DNA of 64,000 bases from an uncultured Acidobacteriaceae bacterium (GTDB lineage Bacteria; Acidobacteriota; Terriglobia; Terriglobales; Acidobacteriaceae). The notes under the pieces were generated by a model. It did not search any database. It saw nothing but the letters and a program-made list of their open reading frames with translations, and had not been told where the DNA came from. Made by a program: the position numbers and the translations under genes. Where the stretch lies: NCBI GenBank assembly GCA_963741395.1, contig CAVUHV010000001.1:222826-286825 (forward strand), written 5' to 3'. Each line of letters begins with the position of its first letter. The first letter of the stretch is position 1. This document shows positions 12,592-55,400 of this stretch, piece by piece.

Positions 12592-12731
12592 GCGTATGGA
12601 CGCATGAGCGCTTTATTAGCACGTTGGACCAACCGGATGAGCAGAAAACTCGACCGGGGCGCGAAGAAAATTTGCAGGACCGTAGCGCGGTACGGATCGA
12701 TTACCATGTTGAAACTTGGACGGGTATTTCG

Positions 12732-14498
12732 ATGCATATCGTCAACGTGCGGTTATTTGCGGGCGTCATGATCGTAGCCTTCGTGACGTTTGATTATGTC
12801 GCATATGCGCAAGACCCATCGCAGAGCTTAAAACAGGCCGACATCGACTATCGCTCCGGGGTTGCGGCTCTCTCGCGCAACGATTTGAACACGGCGCTTC
12901 AAGATTTCGAAAAGGTGGTTCGTCTTGCGCCATCGGCCGAGCAGGGACACAGCGCATTGGGCGCGGTTTTGGTGAGGATGGGGCGAACGAGTGAAGGCAT
13001 TCGAGAACTAGAGAAGGCGTTGACGATCAGGCCAAGCGACGGCAGCGCGCAGCTAAACCTGGCGGTCGCCTACGAACAGAGCGGACAGCCTGCCAAGGCA
13101 CTCCCGTGGTTCGCGAAACTAGAGGCCGCGTCTCGCGCCGAAAAACATCCGCTGCCTGCGTATGCCATTGCGGCCTATGCTCGAGCGCTAACCGCAACGC
13201 AGCAGTTTCCTGCAGCGGTGACAAGAATGAAGGAAGCGGTCGCGGAGGATTCGCACAATGCAGAATGGCACGATGAATTAGGGTCCATCTACGCGTTGCA
13301 GAAAGATTGGCCTAACGCGAAGAAGGCATTCATGGCTGCGGTTGAGGCGAATCCGAACCTCGCCTCGGCTCATTTCCACCTTGGAGTAACACTCCAGGCA
13401 CAGAATAGTCCGGGCGCTCTGGAGGAGCTGTCGAAGGCTTATCAACTTGCTCCACAGAGCTCAATGATCGCTTTAGAACTTGGTCAATCTTTGGCGGCGG
13501 CCGGAAACGACGAGCAGGCGATTCCAGTGCTGCGGCACGCGGTGGAGCTTGACGAGGCTTCGACGGCGGCAGCTTATCAGCTGGGCCTGGCATTGCAGCG
13601 CGCCAACCAGGTGGACGATGCGATTCCATTTTTTCAAAAGGCCGCAGCGGCAGAGTCTGGAGATGCAGAGGTTCTCATAAATCTAGGGTTAGCTCTTTGC
13701 CAGGCGCAGCGGGCCAAGGAGGCCGTTCCCGTTCTACAACATGCAGTAGCTTTAGCTCCTCAAAACATAACGGCCCACCAGAATCTTGCTGCTGCTTACG
13801 TGCAATTAAATCAGTTTGACGATGCCGTGAACCAATTGCGTGCGGCATTGAAACTATCGCCAGATGCTGCGCAATTGCATTACAACTTAGGGGTTGCCTT
13901 CAAAATGAAAGATGATGCGGTGGATGCGATCCCGGAGTTGGAGTCGGCGGAGAAGCTCGATCCGTCCTTGCCTGAGCCGCCCTATGTCCTCGGTGTTTTG
14001 TATATGCAGGCTGGACGCTATGCCGATGCGGCGCGAGAATTGAACACCTCGCTTAAGCTACAGCCAGAAAATGGCGACGGATGGGCGACATTGGGTAGTG
14101 TTTACAACAAGCTGGACAAGTTACCGGAGGCTGTATCGGCTTTGCAGGAGGCCATCCGGCGGCTTCCGAAACAGCCTGATCCTCATCTGACTCTCGCTGC
14201 AGTACTAGTGAAGCAGAATCAGGTTTCGGAGGCCACTGCAGAGAGGAAAATAGCCGCAGGTCTTATGCATGCGCACATGAATCGCCAGCAGGCAGAGGTT
14301 GCCACCAACTCTGCGAACTCACTGCTGAAGAGCGGCAAAGTAGAAGATTCGGTCATAGAGTTTCGCAATGCGTTGAGCTACGACCCGGATTACGCAGAAG
14401 CGCATGTGGGATTGGCAAACGCACTGCAACAACAGGGGAAGATAACCGAAGCGGCAGAGGAGCGGCAGAAAGCAGATGCGCTGAAGAAAAGGCCTTAG
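12732..14498 (+). CDS. Secreted tetratricopeptide-repeat protein
   Basis: Many TPR consensus repeats (e.g. AHFHLGVTL, LHYNLGVAF, AHVGLANAL); signal peptide after MHIVNVR. Confidence 0.88.
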   Translation: MHIVNVRLFAGVMIVAFVTFDYVAYAQDPSQSLKQADIDYRSGVAALSRNDLNTALQDFEKVVRLAPSAEQGHSALGAVLVRMGRTSEGIRELEKALTIRPSDGSAQLNLAVAYEQSGQPAKALPWFAKLEAASRAEKHPLPAYAIAAYARALTATQQFPAAVTRMKEAVAEDSHNAEWHDELGSIYALQKDWPNAKKAFMAAVEANPNLASAHFHLGVTLQAQNSPGALEELSKAYQLAPQSSMIALELGQSLAAAGNDEQAIPVLRHAVELDEASTAAAYQLGLALQRANQVDDAIPFFQKAAAAESGDAEVLINLGLALCQAQRAKEAVPVLQHAVALAPQNITAHQNLAAAYVQLNQFDDAVNQLRAALKLSPDAAQLHYNLGVAFKMKDDAVDAIPELESAEKLDPSLPEPPYVLGVLYMQAGRYADAARELNTSLKLQPENGDGWATLGSVYNKLDKLPEAVSALQEAIRRLPKQPDPHLTLAAVLVKQNQVSEATAERKIAAGLMHAHMNRQQAEVATNSANSLLKSGKVEDSVIEFRNALSYDPDYAEAHVGLANALQQQGKITEAAEERQKADALKKRP

Positions 14499-19358: not shown

Positions 19359-19403
19359 TGGAGCACCGAGAGGGAATTGAACCCTCGAATACTGGTTTTG
19401 CAG
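19359..19403 (-). repeat. att site: displaced 3' fragment of tRNA-Cys (attR)
   Basis: tggagcaccgagagggaattgaaccctcgaatactggttttgcag is identical to 40122-40166; identity ends at the anticodon loop. Confidence 0.95.
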
Positions 19404-38888: not shown

Positions 38889-40022
38889 TCATGAACCGCC
38901 GACATCGGCGGCTAAGAGCAGTTCCACCACACGATTATTGGCCTCACGTTTTTCAGGCGACAGTGCTTTACCGTAGACGTTGAAGGTCGTGGCAATCGCG
39001 GAATGCCTCATCAGATCCTTCGTAACGCCCGGCGCTGCCCCCGTGGCGTCGAGCCAGGATCGATATGAGTGCCGAAGGGAATGAAAACCGAGCCCTTCAA
39101 TGCCAATCGCCTCTCCTGCTGGCCGAATCCACCTTTGTTGCAGGCTTGGCGACATGTACGGCATCCCGGTCGCCGGATTCGCAAACAGCCATTGTGAAGT
39201 GGATTGCACCTTCCACGTCAGAAGCAATTCCGCCAGCAATCGCGCGAGCGGCAATTTCGCCTTGGATGAAGTGGTTTTGGTTTCATCAATAGCGCCACGA
39301 TAAGCGCTACGCCGGATGGTGACAGTTGTGTGCTGCCAATCGAAGTCTTCCCATCGCAGGCCAAGGGCCTCACTGACGCGCAGGCCAAGGCACGACATCG
39401 TGATCGCAATCATATTGACGTGCGCCGGCAGGCGACGAACGACTTCGCGGAACTGATCCGGCGACAGCACGACCGCCTCTTTGGTGCGCCTGGTGACGTT
39501 CTTGATCTTGACGATCTCGATAGGATTCCGACGCTCGAGCGGCAGGTACTCCCACAGCGTGGCCAGGTCGAAGAGCTTGTGCATCAAGCTACGCAAGTGT
39601 CCTTTACTCAAGGGGGCAAGGTCGAGAGACTGGAACCATGCGTGAATCTCGGCCGGCCGAATCTCGGATACGACGTGGTTTCCCCACTTAGGACGGAGCC
39701 TCTTGTTGATGATGGATGTGTAGGAGCTCCGCGTCGCGCGCCGTGCGGGTATCTCTTCCGCAATATAACGATCAAGTAATGCATTGAACGTTACGTCATT
39801 GGCCCGGGCGTATTCCGTGCCCTCGTTCAACTTGAGAAGCTGAGCCTCCACCTTTTGCCGGACAGCCTTCTCGGTTTTGTAGATTCTGCCGTCGAAGTAT
39901 TGGCTTCGCAGGACGCGGTCCCCGTCCTGCTCGACGTAATACCGGAACTCCCACGCGAAGCCGTTTGCCCGTTTCACCCGCCGGACTGAACCCTGCTGAT
40001 ACTTGTCCCGACGCACCTTCAT
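38889..40022 (-). CDS. Tyrosine recombinase (phage-type integrase)
   Basis: GLRVSEALGLRW, FHSLRHS, LMRHS, NVY catalytic set intact; adjacent to tRNA-Cys. Confidence 0.95.
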   Translation of the reverse strand: MKVRRDKYQQGSVRRVKRANGFAWEFRYYVEQDGDRVLRSQYFDGRIYKTEKAVRQKVEAQLLKLNEGTEYARANDVTFNALLDRYIAEEIPARRATRSSYTSIINKRLRPKWGNHVVSEIRPAEIHAWFQSLDLAPLSKGHLRSLMHKLFDLATLWEYLPLERRNPIEIVKIKNVTRRTKEAVVLSPDQFREVVRRLPAHVNMIAITMSCLGLRVSEALGLRWEDFDWQHTTVTIRRSAYRGAIDETKTTSSKAKLPLARLLAELLLTWKVQSTSQWLFANPATGMPYMSPSLQQRWIRPAGEAIGIEGLGFHSLRHSYRSWLDATGAAPGVTKDLMRHSAIATTFNVYGKALSPEKREANNRVVELLLAADVGGS

Positions 40023-40065
40023 AGCCCAACTCCAGAGGTCTTTCCGGAGAGCAGTTTACCTTATC

Positions 40066-40083
40066 ATGGGTTATTATGGGTTG
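40066..40083. repeat. Putative integrase arm-type sites, ATGGGTT x2
   Basis: Copies at 40066 and 40076, same orientation as the pair at 19489/19500. Confidence 0.55.
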
Positions 40084-40121
40084 GTCGATTTTCAGAAATC
40101 TATGTAAACTATTGAAATAAT

Positions 40122-40197
40122 TGGAGCACCGAGAGGGAATTGAACCCTCGAATACTGGTTTTGCAGACCAGCGCGTTAGCCACTTCGCCATCGGTGC
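40122..40197 (-). tRNA. tRNA-Cys (GCA)
   Basis: Cloverleaf GCACCGA/TCGGTGC, anticodon arm CTGGT-CTGCAAA-ACCAG, T-arm GAGGG-TTCAATT-CCCTC, U73 discriminator, encoded CCA. Confidence 0.97.
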
Positions 40198-40243
40198 TCT
40201 TATCCGCCGCATCGGACCGCGACGGAAGCTTTCAGAAATCAGT

Positions 40244-40900
40244 CTACTTCGGCTGAGTCGTTGTACGCAGGTACGGCTTCACTGTTTTGTACCCTGGGAA
40301 GATTTTGGCCGCATCGTCATTGGACAACGCTCCGGTGATGATGACGTCGTCGCCCTGCTTCCAGTTAGCCGGTGTCGCGACCTTATGCTTGCTTGTCAGC
40401 TGCATGGAATCCAGCACGCGGATGATCTCGTCGAAGTTGCGGCCCGTGGTCATCGGATAGGCCAGCGTCAGCTTGATTCGCTTGTCCGGTCCAATTACAA
40501 ACACCATGCGCACTGTGGCATTGTCGGCTGGAGTGCGGCCCTCACAGCTGTCGCCTGCATCGCCAGGCAGCATGTCATACAGCTTCGCTACCTTCAGTTC
40601 CGTGTCGCCGATGACGGGGTAATTGATCGTGGAACCCGTCACGTCCTTGATGTCCTGCGCCCACTTGGCGTGGTTCTCCACTGGGTCCACGCTCAAGCCG
40701 ATCACCTTGGCTCCGCGCGCGGCAAACTGCTGCTCAAGTGACGCTACGGCGCCAAGCTCAGTGGTGCACACGGGCGTAAAGTCCTTGGGATGGGAGAAAA
40801 GAACAGCCCAGTTGTCGCCGATCCACTCGTGGAAGCGAATGGGACCCTGTGTAGTTTCCGCCGTGAAGTCAGGAGCCAGATCGTTGATGCGGAGTGACAT
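40244..40900 (-). CDS. 1-Cys peroxiredoxin (Prx6, LsfA-like)
   Basis: FSHPKDFTPVCTTELG; VATPANWKQGDDVII. Confidence 0.95.
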   Translation of the reverse strand: MSLRINDLAPDFTAETTQGPIRFHEWIGDNWAVLFSHPKDFTPVCTTELGAVASLEQQFAARGAKVIGLSVDPVENHAKWAQDIKDVTGSTINYPVIGDTELKVAKLYDMLPGDAGDSCEGRTPADNATVRMVFVIGPDKRIKLTLAYPMTTGRNFDEIIRVLDSMQLTSKHKVATPANWKQGDDVIITGALSNDDAAKIFPGYKTVKPYLRTTTQPK

Positions 40901-40971
40901 GTTTGAACGTACCTCTCTGGGATTGCCCGGTATTTTCTTGTTGAGATAACTGCTGTTGGTCCTAAACGCTG

Positions 40972-41006
40972 AAAACCCACCCTGCTCGCGGCTCCGGGTG
41001 GGCTCT
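40972..41006 (-). terminator. Intrinsic terminator-like hairpin of the predicted attenuator
   Basis: Minus strand AGAGCCCACCC-13 nt-GGGTGGGTTTT, ending 72 nt upstream of the peroxiredoxin start. Confidence 0.7.
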
Positions 41007-41037
41007 GTGCTGCTCGAAGATGCTTACTTCGATTCGC

Positions 41038-41106
41038 TCATCCACACACCCGCGCCGGGCTACAGCAACAGCAGCGCATGGAGGTCGTGTTGGGCGTCAT
41101 CGTCAT
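41038..41106 (-). CDS. Cys-rich leader peptide MTMTPNTTSMRCCCCSPARVCG (22 aa)
   Basis: AAAGG 8 nt before ATG; TGC TGT TGC TGT run; stop 31 nt before the terminator hairpin. Confidence 0.72.
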   Translation of the reverse strand: MTMTPNTTSMRCCCCSPARVCG

Positions 41107-41201
41107 TAGCTGAACCTTTGTACCGCTGGCCAGCTCAGGCTAGCATGGGGCAGGTTGACCCCATTGCGGTCTAACCAAAACCATAGTCTCGAGGAGCAGC
41201 C

Positions 41202-42140
41202 ATGTCAACCCAGCAAGTTCCTGCTACCGCGCATGCAGCTTACGACTTTGCCCAGGTCGATGTCTTCGCGGAGCGCCCGCTTGAGGGCAATCAGCTCGCC
41301 ATATTCTGTGACGGACGCGGTCTTTCGAGCGAGGAGATGCAATCGCTGGCTCGCGAGACGAATCTCTCAGAGACTACGTTCATCCTGCCCCGCGAGACCC
41401 CTTTGGAGCGAGAGTGCGGTGTGCGGGTCCGCATCTTCACAACGCAAGAGGAACTGCCCTTCGCGGGGCACCCGACGCTCGGCACAGCAAGCTGGCTCTA
41501 CTGGAACCACCCCGCGTTTCGGGGAGCCGACGAGATCACGCTCGAACTTGGCGTAGGGCCAATTCCAGTGAGATTTGCTCAGTCAGAGGCCAATAAACAT
41601 GGCGTCTTTGGAACGATGCGGCAGAACAATCCTGTCTTTGGTGTACCTGATGTCAACCATGCTGCTCTCGCCCCCATCCTGCATCTTGCTCTGGACGATC
41701 TCGACCAAAGTCTGCCCGCCCAGATGGTGACAACAGGCAATCCATTCTGTATCGTTCCGCTGCGATCACTCGATGCTGCCTCGCGAGTTGCCCTGCCACA
41801 GAGCGGGGAAGTGCGCGCTTATCTTGAGCGCGCCGGAGCGAAGTTTTTCTACTTCATCACTCGCGCCGATACCGGTTCCGGCGCTGACTGGCATGCAAGG
41901 ATGCAGTTCTACAGCGGCGAAGATCCTGCGACCGGATCAGCAGCAGGACCCGCTATCGCCTATCTTGTGCGTCACGGAGTGGTGCCGAGCGAGAAGACGA
42001 TTGTGATCGAGCAGGGCGTTGAGATGCTTCGCCCAAGCCGCATTCATGTCTCCGCGAAGCTCGCCGGCGGAGTTGTGTCAAATGTGTTCGTCGGCGGGCG
42101 CACCATTCCAGTTGCAACGGGACGGTTTTTCCTGCCGTGA
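41202..42140 (+). CDS. PhzF-family isomerase
   Basis: QVDVFAERPLEGNQL, SETTF, ELPFAGHPTLG, EDPATGSA, EQG.EM.RPS. Confidence 0.92.
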   Translation: MSTQQVPATAHAAYDFAQVDVFAERPLEGNQLAIFCDGRGLSSEEMQSLARETNLSETTFILPRETPLERECGVRVRIFTTQEELPFAGHPTLGTASWLYWNHPAFRGADEITLELGVGPIPVRFAQSEANKHGVFGTMRQNNPVFGVPDVNHAALAPILHLALDDLDQSLPAQMVTTGNPFCIVPLRSLDAASRVALPQSGEVRAYLERAGAKFFYFITRADTGSGADWHARMQFYSGEDPATGSAAGPAIAYLVRHGVVPSEKTIVIEQGVEMLRPSRIHVSAKLAGGVVSNVFVGGRTIPVATGRFFLP

Positions 42141-42426
42141 TGCACGTGTTTTCAACAGAGCTGTAACATTAATCTCCTGTAATGGCGGGGCTTTGGAAAG
42201 AACGGTGGATGTGCAAGGGCTAATATTGCGCATCTTCGCTGGAACTTCGCCATTGCCAAGCGGGGCAACTCTTCATACTCTTGGCAAGCGTCGATGGTGA
42301 ATTGCATGGAACATGCGGTCGCTGCCGACGGGAATTCTTTCGCCTGTTTTTACGACAACCTGAGTTGAGAGACGCTTGACTGTCATACAGTCACGGCTCC
42401 CTGCGCGCCTATCGCTGCCTGCAAAC

Positions 42427-42792
42427 GCAGTTGTGGTGTGGCCGGTTTCGCCGGTCCCGTCACTTGCTGTAATCGCGGCATTTGATTCCGGCGCCAGGGA
42501 GATCCGCGGGCAACCTGTGTTGGCAACTGCATCTCTCTCGCCCTCGGTCCGGCAGTCTCGCTTGCCGGGCAGTGGCACTGTTCCCCTTGGGACGGGAAGG
42601 AGAGCTTTGTCTCTCCTGCCCGCTCTTAGGAGAGCAGCTGACCCGCTACGTTTCGGAGAGCACTCTTCCGGACCGAGGGGCATCGTTTGTGAACACCCGG
42701 ACTGGAGACCTCTGCAAACCAGCAGATATCCGGACTGGCTTATCGGCTGGAGCCCATCAACGACGATGGCGTCCGGCAGAAGCGAGACTGCA
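42427..42792 (+). ncRNA. Candidate structured cis-regulatory leader
   Basis: Helices 42541-52/42668-79 (12 bp), 42552-70/42771-91 (19 bp, 2-nt bulge), 42427-34/42523-30, and hairpins at 42593-622, 42622-635, 42754-769. Confidence 0.45.
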
Positions 42793-43230
42793 TTGCGCCC
42801 CAAGAAAACGATCCTCTGCGTAGATGACAACGAACAAGTCCTCTCAGTCCGAACATTTCTCCTCGAAACCCGCGGTTACCGCGTAATCCCAGCTCTGTCA
42901 GCCCCCCAGGCCCTCGAAGTTGTGGAGCAGTCCATTCCCGGATCGCTGGACCTACTGCTATGCGATCTGCTGATGCCGCAGATGGACGGCAACGAACTCG
43001 TCCGCCGCGCCAAACAGCTTCATCCCTCCCTGCCAGCCATGATTGTTTCCGGCACGGTCACTTCGTTCGACCGCGCCTGCTGCGCCGATGTCTTTCTCCC
43101 CAAAGGAGGCTGCTCGCCTGCCGAGATGATCGAGCGCATTCGTGTGCTTGTTGCTCGCAAGCGCGGGCCCAAGAAGGCTCATCCGCTGCAGCATGCCTCA
43201 CATGTCCTCAGCGCTGCCGCTGCTTCGTAG
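42793..43230 (+). CDS. Single-domain response regulator
   Basis: ILCVDDNE, DLLLCDLLMPQMDG, MIVSG, FLPKG; TTG start at 42793 preferred to 42376. Confidence 0.85.
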   Translation: MRPKKTILCVDDNEQVLSVRTFLLETRGYRVIPALSAPQALEVVEQSIPGSLDLLLCDLLMPQMDGNELVRRAKQLHPSLPAMIVSGTVTSFDRACCADVFLPKGGCSPAEMIERIRVLVARKRGPKKAHPLQHASHVLSAAAAS

Positions 43231-54215: not shown

Positions 54216-55400
54216 CTAGTGGTCGTGGTGGGTGTCATTCAGATAGGCCGCCGCGCGGCTACTCAGCGCCTCGGTCTCTGAACGCAGCTTCGTTAGAACA
54301 CTCCACTGGTCCTTCTCCTTCATTTTGGGAACCCATGCCGGCAGCGGCATCCTCAGGTAGTCGGAGAGTGCGCCGGCATGCTTCTCATAAAGCTCCCTGA
54401 TCGTATTCAGCCGTCGTGCGGAACCATCGTCACGGCACAGTTTCAGGTGCATCTCTCCCAGTGCGCTGCAAAGCCGGTCGAAGTCCGCAGGAGGTAGCCT
54501 GTCCTTGCCTTCCTGCAGCTTCCATTCTGCTTGCTCCTGCACGTGGAAGACTTGGCCAAGATCGATTAACGCGTGGCGCGCCATCACAAAGGTCAGTTGT
54601 GCCTGCCTTGACGGCGCCCCCTCGATAATCGAGATAAGCAGTGCGCAGGTATCCAGAATGGCTGTCAGAGCCGCGAGCCAGCTCTGGTTGTCGTGCTGCG
54701 AGCGGTAATAGCAGAGAATGGGGTACGAGATATGCGACTCCAGTATCTCGGCGGACCAGCGTTCCCACTCGGCGAGCAGCTCCGTCAGCGCCTCTTCGCC
54801 GCCCTCGAAGCTGTGTCTGCGTAGCAGTTCGGCTGCCGTCGGCGGGGAACCCGCACGAGCATCGAGCAGTACGATGCTCACCTCACGCCGTGAAAATGCC
54901 TGATACAGCACCGGCAGATAGCCGATAACCAGCGCCACAAACCCAAGCCCGACTCCGGACTCGAGGATAATCAGACCACGCGGCGGGACGCTATGCGGCA
55001 CCACGTCTCCCAGACCCAGGGTAAACAGTGTCGTTCCGCTGACATAGAGGTCCATCTCGTATTCACTAATTCCCCTCGCCAGGTGTGTCCCCAGCACATC
55101 GGTAAACGGTGACCCCAGCGCAAAATAGAGGAAGCTGAAGCCGAATATCAGCAACATACCCCACAGCAGCAACAGCAGCAGAAGCGATAACGGGCCATAG
55201 ATACTGTAGATCTGCTCTCTAGCCTTTGCGTTGCGCGTTCGCTCTGCCATGGCCGCCCACGGGGCCCAGGTCGCGATGAAGAACAGCCGCGTGATGCTGA
55301 ACCGCCCTGTCGGCCGCCGCGGCAGAACAATCGCCTGGAACGCGTCGACAAAGACGCCCAGGCAACAAACTAATCCCGCAATGAATGCAGCAACATGCAC
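54216..55400 (-). CDS. Potassium channel-family protein (Ion_trans_2-like)
   Basis: TM helices around YVSGTTLFTLGLGD pore loop. Confidence 0.8.
   Translation of the reverse strand: MHVAAFIAGLVCCLGVFVDAFQAIVLPRRPTGRFSITRLFFIATWAPWAAMAERTRNAKAREQIYSIYGPLSLLLLLLLWGMLLIFGFSFLYFALGSPFTDVLGTHLARGISEYEMDLYVSGTTLFTLGLGDVVPHSVPPRGLIILESGVGLGFVALVIGYLPVLYQAFSRREVSIVLLDARAGSPPTAAELLRRHSFEGGEEALTELLAEWERWSAEILESHISYPILCYYRSQHDNQSWLAALTAILDTCALLISIIEGAPSRQAQLTFVMARHALIDLGQVFHVQEQAEWKLQEGKDRLPPADFDRLCSALGEMHLKLCRDDGSARRLNTIRELYEKHAGALSDYLRMPLPAWVPKMKEKDQWSVLTKLRSETEALSSRAAAYLNDTHHDH

Follow-up and report, generated by a model that had tools for sequence, protein, structure and literature searches.

We analyzed a 64,000-nucleotide stretch of DNA from an uncultured Acidobacteriaceae bacterium (contig CAVUHV010000001.1, positions 222,826 to 286,825), referred to below as the window, in which a short cysteine-rich open reading frame (ORF) and a hairpin with the features of an intrinsic terminator precede prx, a peroxiredoxin gene. 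From this examination, we consider it quite probable that prx is controlled by a ribosome-mediated transcription attenuator that would read the supply of charged tRNA-Cys. An earlier note on this DNA had proposed ribosome-mediated cysteine sensing before the peroxiredoxin, and the comparison with relatives supports that proposal through a conserved Cys run, a fitting geometry, an antiterminator, a promoter and a sister leader. Translation of the leader, ribosome stalling, termination, co-transcription of a downstream tRNA gene and the physiological signal are what we infer from these sequence comparisons. All leader, terminator, prx and tRNA features of the window lie on the minus strand.

The leader ORF, MTMTPNTTSMRCCCCSPARVCG* (the asterisk marking the stop), was read from the sequence and the ORF list at 41106..41038 and comprises 22 codons and a stop codon. 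Its sensor consists of four successive Cys codons, TGC TGT TGC TGT (41073..41062), and a fifth Cys codon is found at 41046..41044. Downstream of the ORF, an intrinsic terminator that would act as the attenuator spans 41006..40972, with a 5' arm AGAGCCCACCC (41006..40996), a 13-nt loop, a 3' arm GGGUGGG (40982..40976) and a UUUU tract (40975..40972). The 5' strand of the antiterminator lies within the 3' end of the ORF (41044..41057) and is made up of CGGC (41057..41054), CGGGUG (41052..41047) and GU (41045..41044). This strand resembles the terminator 3' arm GGGUGGG, and its CGGGUG can base-pair with the CACCCG that the terminator 5' arm contains at 41000..40995. A middle hairpin, TCGAAG-TAAGCAT-CTTCGA (41032..41014), is enclosed by the antiterminator; it could either pause RNA polymerase or act as a spacer in the structure. 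Using RNAfold, the terminator alone was assigned -19.0 kcal/mol, and the antiterminator -31.7 kcal/mol when the sequence was cut before the 3' arm. The GC-rich hairpin ending in UUUU and the CGGGUG/CACCCG complementarity, both pointed out in the earlier note, were confirmed, the former with homologous hairpins in relatives and the latter with register-specific conservation and some compensatory changes.

Under the proposed mechanism, transcription would start at the TTGACA/TATGGT promoter and a ribosome would translate the 22-codon leader. With ample Cys-tRNA(Cys), the ribosome would reach the stop codon and from there mask the antiterminator strand (CGGC.CGGGUG.GU, 4-20 nt upstream of the stop), leaving the terminator arms CCCACCC and GGGUGGG free to form their hairpin ahead of UUUU, with transcription ending near 40972. 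With scarce Cys-tRNA(Cys), the ribosome would stall within TGC-TGT-TGC-TGT with its front edge just short of CGGGUG, the free CGGGUG would pair with CACCCG and block the terminator, and RNA polymerase would read into prx and probably on to a tRNA-Cys gene 46 nt further. The spacing fits this scheme. A ribosome whose A site holds the fourth Cys codon (41064..41062) and whose front reaches about 12 nt ahead would extend to about 41052, the start of CGGGUG. Stalled at any of the preceding Cys codons, it would leave a larger part of the strand free, and at the stop codon it would cover the entire 5' strand.

We sought the same arrangement in other genomes. A Prx protein search of 185,579 species genomes yielded 80 loci, of which 20, all from Acidobacteriaceae/Terriglobia, carry a Cys-run short ORF and a CCCACC(C)..(G)GGTGG(G)-T(n) hairpin upstream of prx. 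The Cys ORF and the terminator co-occur one to one, and neither is present at the other 59 prx loci, a recurrence well past what coincidence would give. A 21st locus (L006), cut at a contig end, still shows the terminator 3' arm. It was noted that this contig (JBPBPZ010000289.1) is binned as Janthinobacterium lividum and yet carries an acidobacterial-type prx (82% identity) with tRNA-Cys downstream; the contig is probably mis-binned. Metagenomes were scanned with a pattern that set no condition on Cys codons or on the downstream gene (GGGTR, 20-50 nt, CCCACCC, 3-23 nt, GGGTGGGTTT). At least 120 loci were recovered, and about 83 of these have a CC-containing ORF ending exactly at GGGTR. Among the matches listed, the Prx gene lies 46-163 nt past the terminator in virtually all CC-ORF loci with enough downstream DNA, and roughly 35 other metagenome matches have neither a CC-ORF nor Prx.

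Together, the genome and metagenome sets comprise at least 99 distinct sequences from Terriglobia (Acidobacteriota). The unit they share comprises a promoter close to consensus, a poly-Cys short ORF, the antiterminator and the CCCACCC/GGGUGGG terminator, and, behind these, a prx of the Prx6/LsfA type. We distinguished two groups among the matches listed. Group A (37 members, the window included) has GGGUG 9-13 nt before the stop codon and a Prx typically 78-92% identical to that of the window. In group B (62 members), the Prx is mostly about 70% identical and a GGGUAG overlaps the stop; its geometry likewise fits the scheme, the antiterminator strand being formed by the last 11 nt of the ORF and the first base of the stop codon.

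An equivalent ORF, with an ATG or GTG start and its stop fixed relative to the antiterminator, was found at at least 99 distinct loci. Among the matches listed, 79 of 99 leaders have 4-6 Cys residues in their final 16 codons, and runs of at least two and at least three Cys occur in 95 and 76 of the 99, respectively. Peptide length ranges from 18 to 30 residues across the family, and the sequence drifts outside the Cys run and the last few residues. At locus L009 (Tunturiibacter psychrotolerans X4BP1) the leader is MTMMPNTTTTLCCCCCCSPVWVCG*, and other relatives have freely divergent peptides such as MTITLKSNPTTCCCCCCSQVWVCA, MKLLSTIRRGMCCCCCCPPRVRV and MFRPYHAGVTCCCMCSLPCG. The peptides end in ..RVCG* or ..PPCG*, encoded by GGGUGUGUGGAUGA or GUGUGGGUAG, and this stretch copies the 3' arm of the terminator, GGGUGGG; the constraint there is therefore on the RNA and not on the protein. 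The choice of Cys codon varies synonymously between TGT and TGC, and TGT accounts for 62% of leader Cys codons overall and 78% in group B, versus 26-29% in long ORFs of the same DNA. TGT is read through wobble by the single GCA anticodon. The enrichment of TGT in the leaders would fit a tuning of sensitivity. Across the whole 64-kb window, six-frame translation returned two runs of at least four Cys residues. The run outside the leader, near 55180 on the minus strand (MARYRFCCCCCCGVCC*, 55130-55200), was rejected as a second leader, being a chance, frame-shifted reading of an LLLLLL stretch; the gene hosting this out-of-frame peptide encodes a membrane protein of 394 aa (54216-55400).

The alternative structures were then assessed by naming the antiterminator pairings by hand and counting pairs, on a MAFFT alignment for group B, with slid registers and shuffles as controls. 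In group B, CGCCG.GUGGGU.GG pairs with CC.ACCCAC.CGGCG in 80.8% of cells, compared to at most 48% in six slid registers. It was also noted that 27 cells show changes on both sides, versus 16.4 expected, a value reached by none of 500 shuffles. In group A, 70% of antiterminator cells are paired versus at most 46% when slid, and a pair flanking the core, which belongs to the antiterminator only, switches between C-G (16 sequences) and U-A (7 sequences). The middle hairpin is predicted in nearly all members, with both-sided changes in 5 of 6 pairs of the group A alignment. Across 21 genome members, RNAfold energies range from -14 to -35 kcal/mol for the antiterminator and from -14 to -28 kcal/mol for the terminator, the former rivaling the latter in every one of the 21. 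A U-run follows the hairpin in every member, reaching up to 7 U in relatives, and a terminator scan calls the homologous hairpins in L008 and L042. RNAalifold predicted no structure for group A, and for group B its prediction was confined to the 4-bp invariant core. An Rfam cmscan of 39000..43000, with E values up to 1, found no leader family, the tRNA being the sole match.

The earlier note had read the locus as a classic 1:2/2:3/3:4 layout, taking a small hairpin just after the Cys run, GCCCG-GCG-CGGGU, as the 1:2 element. The small hairpin is present and the 2:3 and 3:4 pairings stand. Its role as a 1:2 element is unsupported, because shuffled and slid controls pair as well: the share of paired cells is 67.6%, a level attained by 337 of 500 shuffles and exceeded, at 69.4%, in the register slid by +2. 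By its predicted pairings, the element is a two-state design, 2:3 versus 3:4, in which no 1:2 element is conserved. If the leader were not translated, read-through and not super-attenuation would therefore be expected.

Upstream of the leader, a sigma-70-type promoter was identified by scan and by conservation at 41180..41208, with a -35 box TTGACA (41208..41203), a 17-nt spacer and a -10 box TATGGT (41185..41180); the predicted transcription start is near 41176..41172. It is the sole promoter-like site on the minus strand within 39900..41500, and nearly all of the 99 family members among the matches listed share TTGACA-17/18-TAT(C/T/G)(C/G)T. Again among those matches, the ATG or GTG stands 6-10 nt past the -10 box in 60 of the 62 leaders of group B and in about 10 of those of group A; in these leaders the ORF therefore starts at the 5' end of the RNA (leaderless). 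The window leader is not leaderless: its ATG lies 73 nt past the -10 box, behind a 5' untranslated region (UTR) of about 67 nt. The earlier note had described the ORF as preceded by a Shine-Dalgarno sequence. The ORF itself is real as a reading frame, and the supposed Shine-Dalgarno sequence amounts to just AAGG, ending 10 nt before the ATG and not conserved in relatives; the window subgroup has a UTR of about 70 nt with an A-rich stretch before the ATG and without a conserved Shine-Dalgarno sequence. Two small hairpins occupy this UTR (41129..41164) in the window subgroup only, ATGGGG-loop-CCCCAT (41164..41145) and GCTAGC-CTGA-GCTGGC (41144..41129), and they show compensatory changes, for example ATCGAG/CTTGAT in L002 and L137. 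In L001 and L016, the first ATG there shares the reading frame of the leader, which lengthens the ORF. A divergent gene assigned by Pfam to the PhzF-family isomerases (41202-42140, plus strand) has an ATG that overlaps the -35 box of the leader promoter, and the PhzF-family neighbor recurs at several related loci, as noted from reverse-frame translations.

Further evidence for the identity of the sensed signal comes from a sister leader. We scanned 1.25 Mb of relatives' DNA for promoter-proximal Cys-rich leaderless ORFs and recovered the leader of a sulfite reductase operon at L165, two known members and nothing further. This sister leader, MSDLHQSFDCICCTCCRAFVSPGAGRLLT*, is followed by CCCACCGCCAG-loop-CUGGCGGUGGG-U5 and lies at about 12700-13000 on the minus strand, on the same contig as a prx leader. 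The genes past it encode a ferredoxin-type sulfite reductase, siroheme synthesis enzymes and CysH. Six homologous Terriglobales operons (L201-L206, about 1200-1500; 77-86% identity) all have the same poly-Cys leader and terminator, and all six have a CUGGCG/CGCCAG antiterminator and a peptide ending in ..SSGAGRLLT*. The sister terminator ends 5-6 nt before the sulfite reductase start codon, and there is therefore no room for a ribosome-binding site. These comparisons support cysteine sensing, in that a Cys-codon attenuator would appear to control sulfate assimilation in this clade. The prx leader would sense cysteine as well, because a like poly-Cys leader precedes a sulfate-assimilation operon, where cysteine is the logical effector.

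The regulated gene, prx (40900..40244), starts after 71 nt past the terminator and encodes a 218-aa Prx6-type (1-Cys, LsfA-like) peroxiredoxin. Its ribosome-binding site, AGAGAGG (40917..40911), lies 55 nt beyond the terminator and outside the hairpin. The product carries the Pfam domains AhpC-TSA (PF00578, 2.5e-29) and 1-cysPrx_C (PF10417, 3.5e-11) and the active-site motif PVCTTE (FTPVCTTEL), and its nearest solved structures, at E about 1e-78, are 6P0W and 7KUU, which are of Pseudomonas aeruginosa LsfA (PMC12141841). The family assignment of the earlier note, a 1-Cys peroxiredoxin, is borne out by these domains and by the LsfA structures as top matches. A second Cys (..GDSCEG..), which may or may not act as a resolving cysteine, was also noted in the product, and the corresponding region of LsfA is a flexible loop (PMC12141841). 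The same note had stated that LsfA is induced by sulfate starvation, and induction is documented for sulfur starvation: lsfA of P. aeruginosa rises more than 45-fold under it (PMC12581299; induction also in PMC4199769). The unit probably couples peroxide defense to cysteine and sulfur status, possibly also to thiol oxidation.

The nature of the signal admits a different reading of the same mechanism, in which oxidative or thiol stress depletes free cysteine or the charging of tRNA-Cys and so induces prx directly. We regard this as possible but doubtful. The regulated gene is a peroxidase and not a biosynthetic enzyme; the peroxidase function is retained in three group A loci (L174, L182, L192) where a different Prx6-like clade (36-45% identity) stands behind the same leader type; and lsfA is responsive to oxidants too in Pseudomonas (PMC4199769). 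However, the sister leader before sulfite reductase and cysH points to cysteine supply as the common input. The oxidative and the sulfur-supply signals are compatible and not mutually exclusive.

A second question is which gene the attenuator serves, as a tRNA-Cys gene with the anticodon GCA lies at 40197..40122, 46 nt past the prx stop codon. It is the sole tRNA gene in the window (ARAGORN, Rfam), and the earlier note had overlooked its place in the probable prx transcription unit. The 46-nt spacer contains neither a terminator nor a promoter-like site, and it holds a GC-rich hairpin, CCGTCGC-loop-GCGGCGG (40204..40225), without a U-tract, which is probably a processing or 3'-end-stabilizing structure. 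On one alternative reading, the attenuator mainly serves the tRNA gene, the speed of Cys decoding setting the transcription of tRNA-Cys (or tRNA-Sec), with prx as a passenger. In its favor, tRNA-Cys is found within 400 nt past prx at 24 of 31 assessable group A loci, versus 0 of 59 prx loci without the leader, none of which has a tRNA of any kind within that distance. The spacers between prx and the tRNA are short (37-137 nt) and have neither a U-tract nor a promoter-like site. A stable, sequence-variable hairpin whose end is 0-10 nt ahead of tRNA-Cys occurs in 19 of 26 loci; for the full set of 26, the spacer hairpins have a median dG of -17.6 kcal/mol, a median z of -2.7 and a median distance of 5 nt to the tRNA. 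A hairpin abutting the tRNA in this manner suggests co-transcription followed by processing. At L132 there is no prx: the promoter, the leader MTLRFISLPCCRCCCGLHGCA*, the antiterminator and the terminator lead to tRNA-Cys across a gap of 32 nt. L192, with its different Prx6-like clade, has kept tRNA-Cys, and at L008 a terminator-like site lies past the tRNA. Metatranscriptome contigs of relatives, from four metatranscriptomes, link the leader to prx and prx to tRNA-Cys, these contigs being fragmentary and DNA carry-over being possible.

Against the tRNA as the main target, 7 of the 31 assessable group A loci are missing tRNA-Cys, and group B has tRNA-Sec or no tRNA. More uncharged tRNA would also be of no obvious help in cysteine starvation, and the co-transcription is itself deduced from sequence. 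We therefore consider it rather unlikely that prx is a mere passenger. It was nonetheless noted that tRNA-Cys is probably the last gene of the prx transcription unit, and the tRNA gene is probably under attenuator control along with prx. To our knowledge, no leader-peptide attenuator of a tRNA gene has been described before. A broader version, in which the attenuator governs both a thiol peroxidase and tRNA-Cys, or tRNA-Sec in the case of the sister clade, and would form a translation-coupled homeostat of cysteine decoding, is a tentative proposal to which we give somewhat less than an even chance.

Several features surround these tRNA genes. In group B, tRNA-Sec lies within 400 nt past prx at 19 of 48 loci and within 5 kb at 13 more. 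Where tRNA-Sec (UCA) directly follows prx, as in L042 (3179-3276) and L066 (3168-3265), spacers are as short as 14-29 nt. The ORFs between prx and tRNA-Sec are variable, and none appeared selenium-like on inspection of translations, no family search having been run. It was also noted that tRNA-Gly and tRNA-Cys are often found 2-7 kb upstream of group B loci on the opposite strand. In the window, a tyrosine-integrase gene (38889-40022, minus strand) adjoins tRNA-Cys, and a perfect 45-bp direct repeat of the tRNA-Cys 3' half (19359-19403 and 40122-40166, minus strand) bounds about 20.7 kb. The arrangement resembles that of an integrative island with the tRNA-Cys gene as its insertion site. The same integrase family is found beside the tRNA-Cys of L132.

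For the mode of control itself, translational or Rho-dependent regulation, as proposed for actinobacterial Cys leaders, could take the place of intrinsic termination. The short U-tract of the window and the position of the sister terminator, so close to the sulfite reductase start, would favor it, but the hairpin does not include the ribosome-binding site or the start of prx, which follow it by 46-163 nt, a U-run of up to 7 U always follows the hairpin, and the hairpins of relatives pass generic terminator criteria. We consider this alternative improbable. That the short ORF instead encodes a functional Cys-rich micropeptide, such as a metal binder or a thiol partner of Prx, with the hairpin as its own terminator, is about equally improbable: the poly-Cys tract and the C-terminal ..CG are conserved and 1-Cys peroxiredoxins require an external reductant (PMC12141841), but the peptide shows no conservation outside the Cys run and varies from 18 to 30 residues, its conserved C-terminus is explained by the RNA (GGGUG or GGGUAG mimicking the terminator arm), the stretch from the terminator to prx contains no promoter-like site, and the same design stands before sulfite reductase and, in L132, before a tRNA. 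The leader peptide may have a side function alongside attenuation.

Several observations weigh against attenuation of prx by cysteine supply and temper our confidence in it. Isolate RNA-seq runs were searched, and none contains the window locus or L009. Peroxiredoxin is not a cysteine-biosynthesis gene, and the logic of the link would rest on analogy to LsfA. Some loci (L086, L087/L148 and L194) retain the terminator and yet have just 1-3 scattered Cys residues, as eroded runs. The window leader itself stands behind about 67 nt of UTR in which no ribosome-binding site is convincing, and a generic terminator scan missed the window hairpin, with its 13-nt loop and a U-tract of just 4 U. Taken as a whole, the region folds no more stably than shuffled sequence (z = -0.06), a measure that is uninformative for a switch. 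The 80 metagenome members were retrieved by core motifs, and just the flanking pairs are independent evidence. The earlier note had looked to orthologous upstream regions for a conserved Cys-run ORF and a covarying terminator: the Cys-run ORF is conserved, and the terminator stem shows little covariation, its CCCACCC/GGGUGGG core being almost invariant even in the Prx-ascertained set. The need for three mutually compatible strands would explain such a near-invariant core.

If true, the attenuator of prx would be the first RNA- or ribosome-level regulatory system defined in Acidobacteriota, abundant soil bacteria whose regulation is scarcely characterized. It would also mean that a link seen in Pseudomonas, between sulfur starvation and the induction of a peroxiredoxin, arose here independently, the sensor being the ribosome and not a transcription factor. 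Cys-codon attenuation would be extended beyond Actinobacteria and cysS, in a minimal two-state design that combines a leaderless ORF with an intrinsic terminator, and a tRNA gene whose product is the molecule sensed would be placed under probable attenuator control. With at least 99 members and a sister family before sulfate assimilation, the family presents a testable cysteine 'ribulon' in Acidobacteriota. The earlier note knew of no Cys leader before a peroxiredoxin, and a full-text literature search likewise found none described before a peroxiredoxin or in Acidobacteria.

Compared to the classical attenuators (trp, his, leu, thr and pheA of Enterobacteria; trp of Corynebacterium and Streptomyces, PMC1262725), the family is alike in carrying an ORF where codons of the sensed amino acid stand in tandem and in its mutually exclusive antiterminator and intrinsic terminator, with the position of the lead ribosome being decisive. 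It differs in having no conserved 1:2 hairpin, in an ORF that is leaderless in most members, and in its targets, a peroxiredoxin and probably a tRNA instead of a biosynthetic operon; no sequence relationship was noted. Cys leaders have also been predicted before the actinobacterial cys operon and cbs (PMC1262725), and the poly-Cys leaderless ORFs of the mycobacterial 'Cys ribulon' are experimentally proven Cys sensors (Canestrari et al., bioRxiv 10.1101/834739 / Mol Microbiol 2020). The mycobacterial leaders share with most members of this family a C-terminal poly-Cys tract and leaderless ORFs, and they coordinate several independent loci including sulfur assimilation, as the sulfite reductase operon would here. 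However, the mycobacterial elements act on translation, through the opening of a duplex that masks the ribosome-binding site belonging to the following gene, and have no terminator, whereas the family in this different phylum has a U-tract hairpin well upstream of the prx ribosome-binding site. Its targets include an antioxidant enzyme and a tRNA gene, again unlike those in mycobacteria, and the window copy is not leaderless.

The uORFC-8-2 motif upstream of cysS in Rhodobacterales is a predicted Cys attenuator (Brewer et al. 2021, PMC8632094). It is alike in combining tandem Cys codons with a terminator and in linking the charging of Cys-tRNA to a gene of the Cys-tRNA system, but it has just two Cys codons, located inside the first stem, its target is cysteinyl-tRNA synthetase, and it belongs to Alphaproteobacteria with an unrelated sequence. 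Pseudomonas LsfA shares the enzyme family and the proposed link between sulfur or cysteine shortage and peroxide defense; it belongs, however, to a sulfate-starvation regulon driven by a transcription factor, whereas a cis-acting RNA and ribosome device is proposed here. The sulfur-starvation response of LsfA in Pseudomonas is CysB-dependent. Finally, the thrU-tyrU-glyT-thrT-tufB operon of Escherichia coli is a mixed mRNA-tRNA operon whose parts are separated by processing. As predicted for prx and tRNA-Cys, it places tRNA and a protein gene on one transcript, but its tRNAs precede the protein gene and it has no leader-peptide attenuator rich in the codons of its own tRNA.

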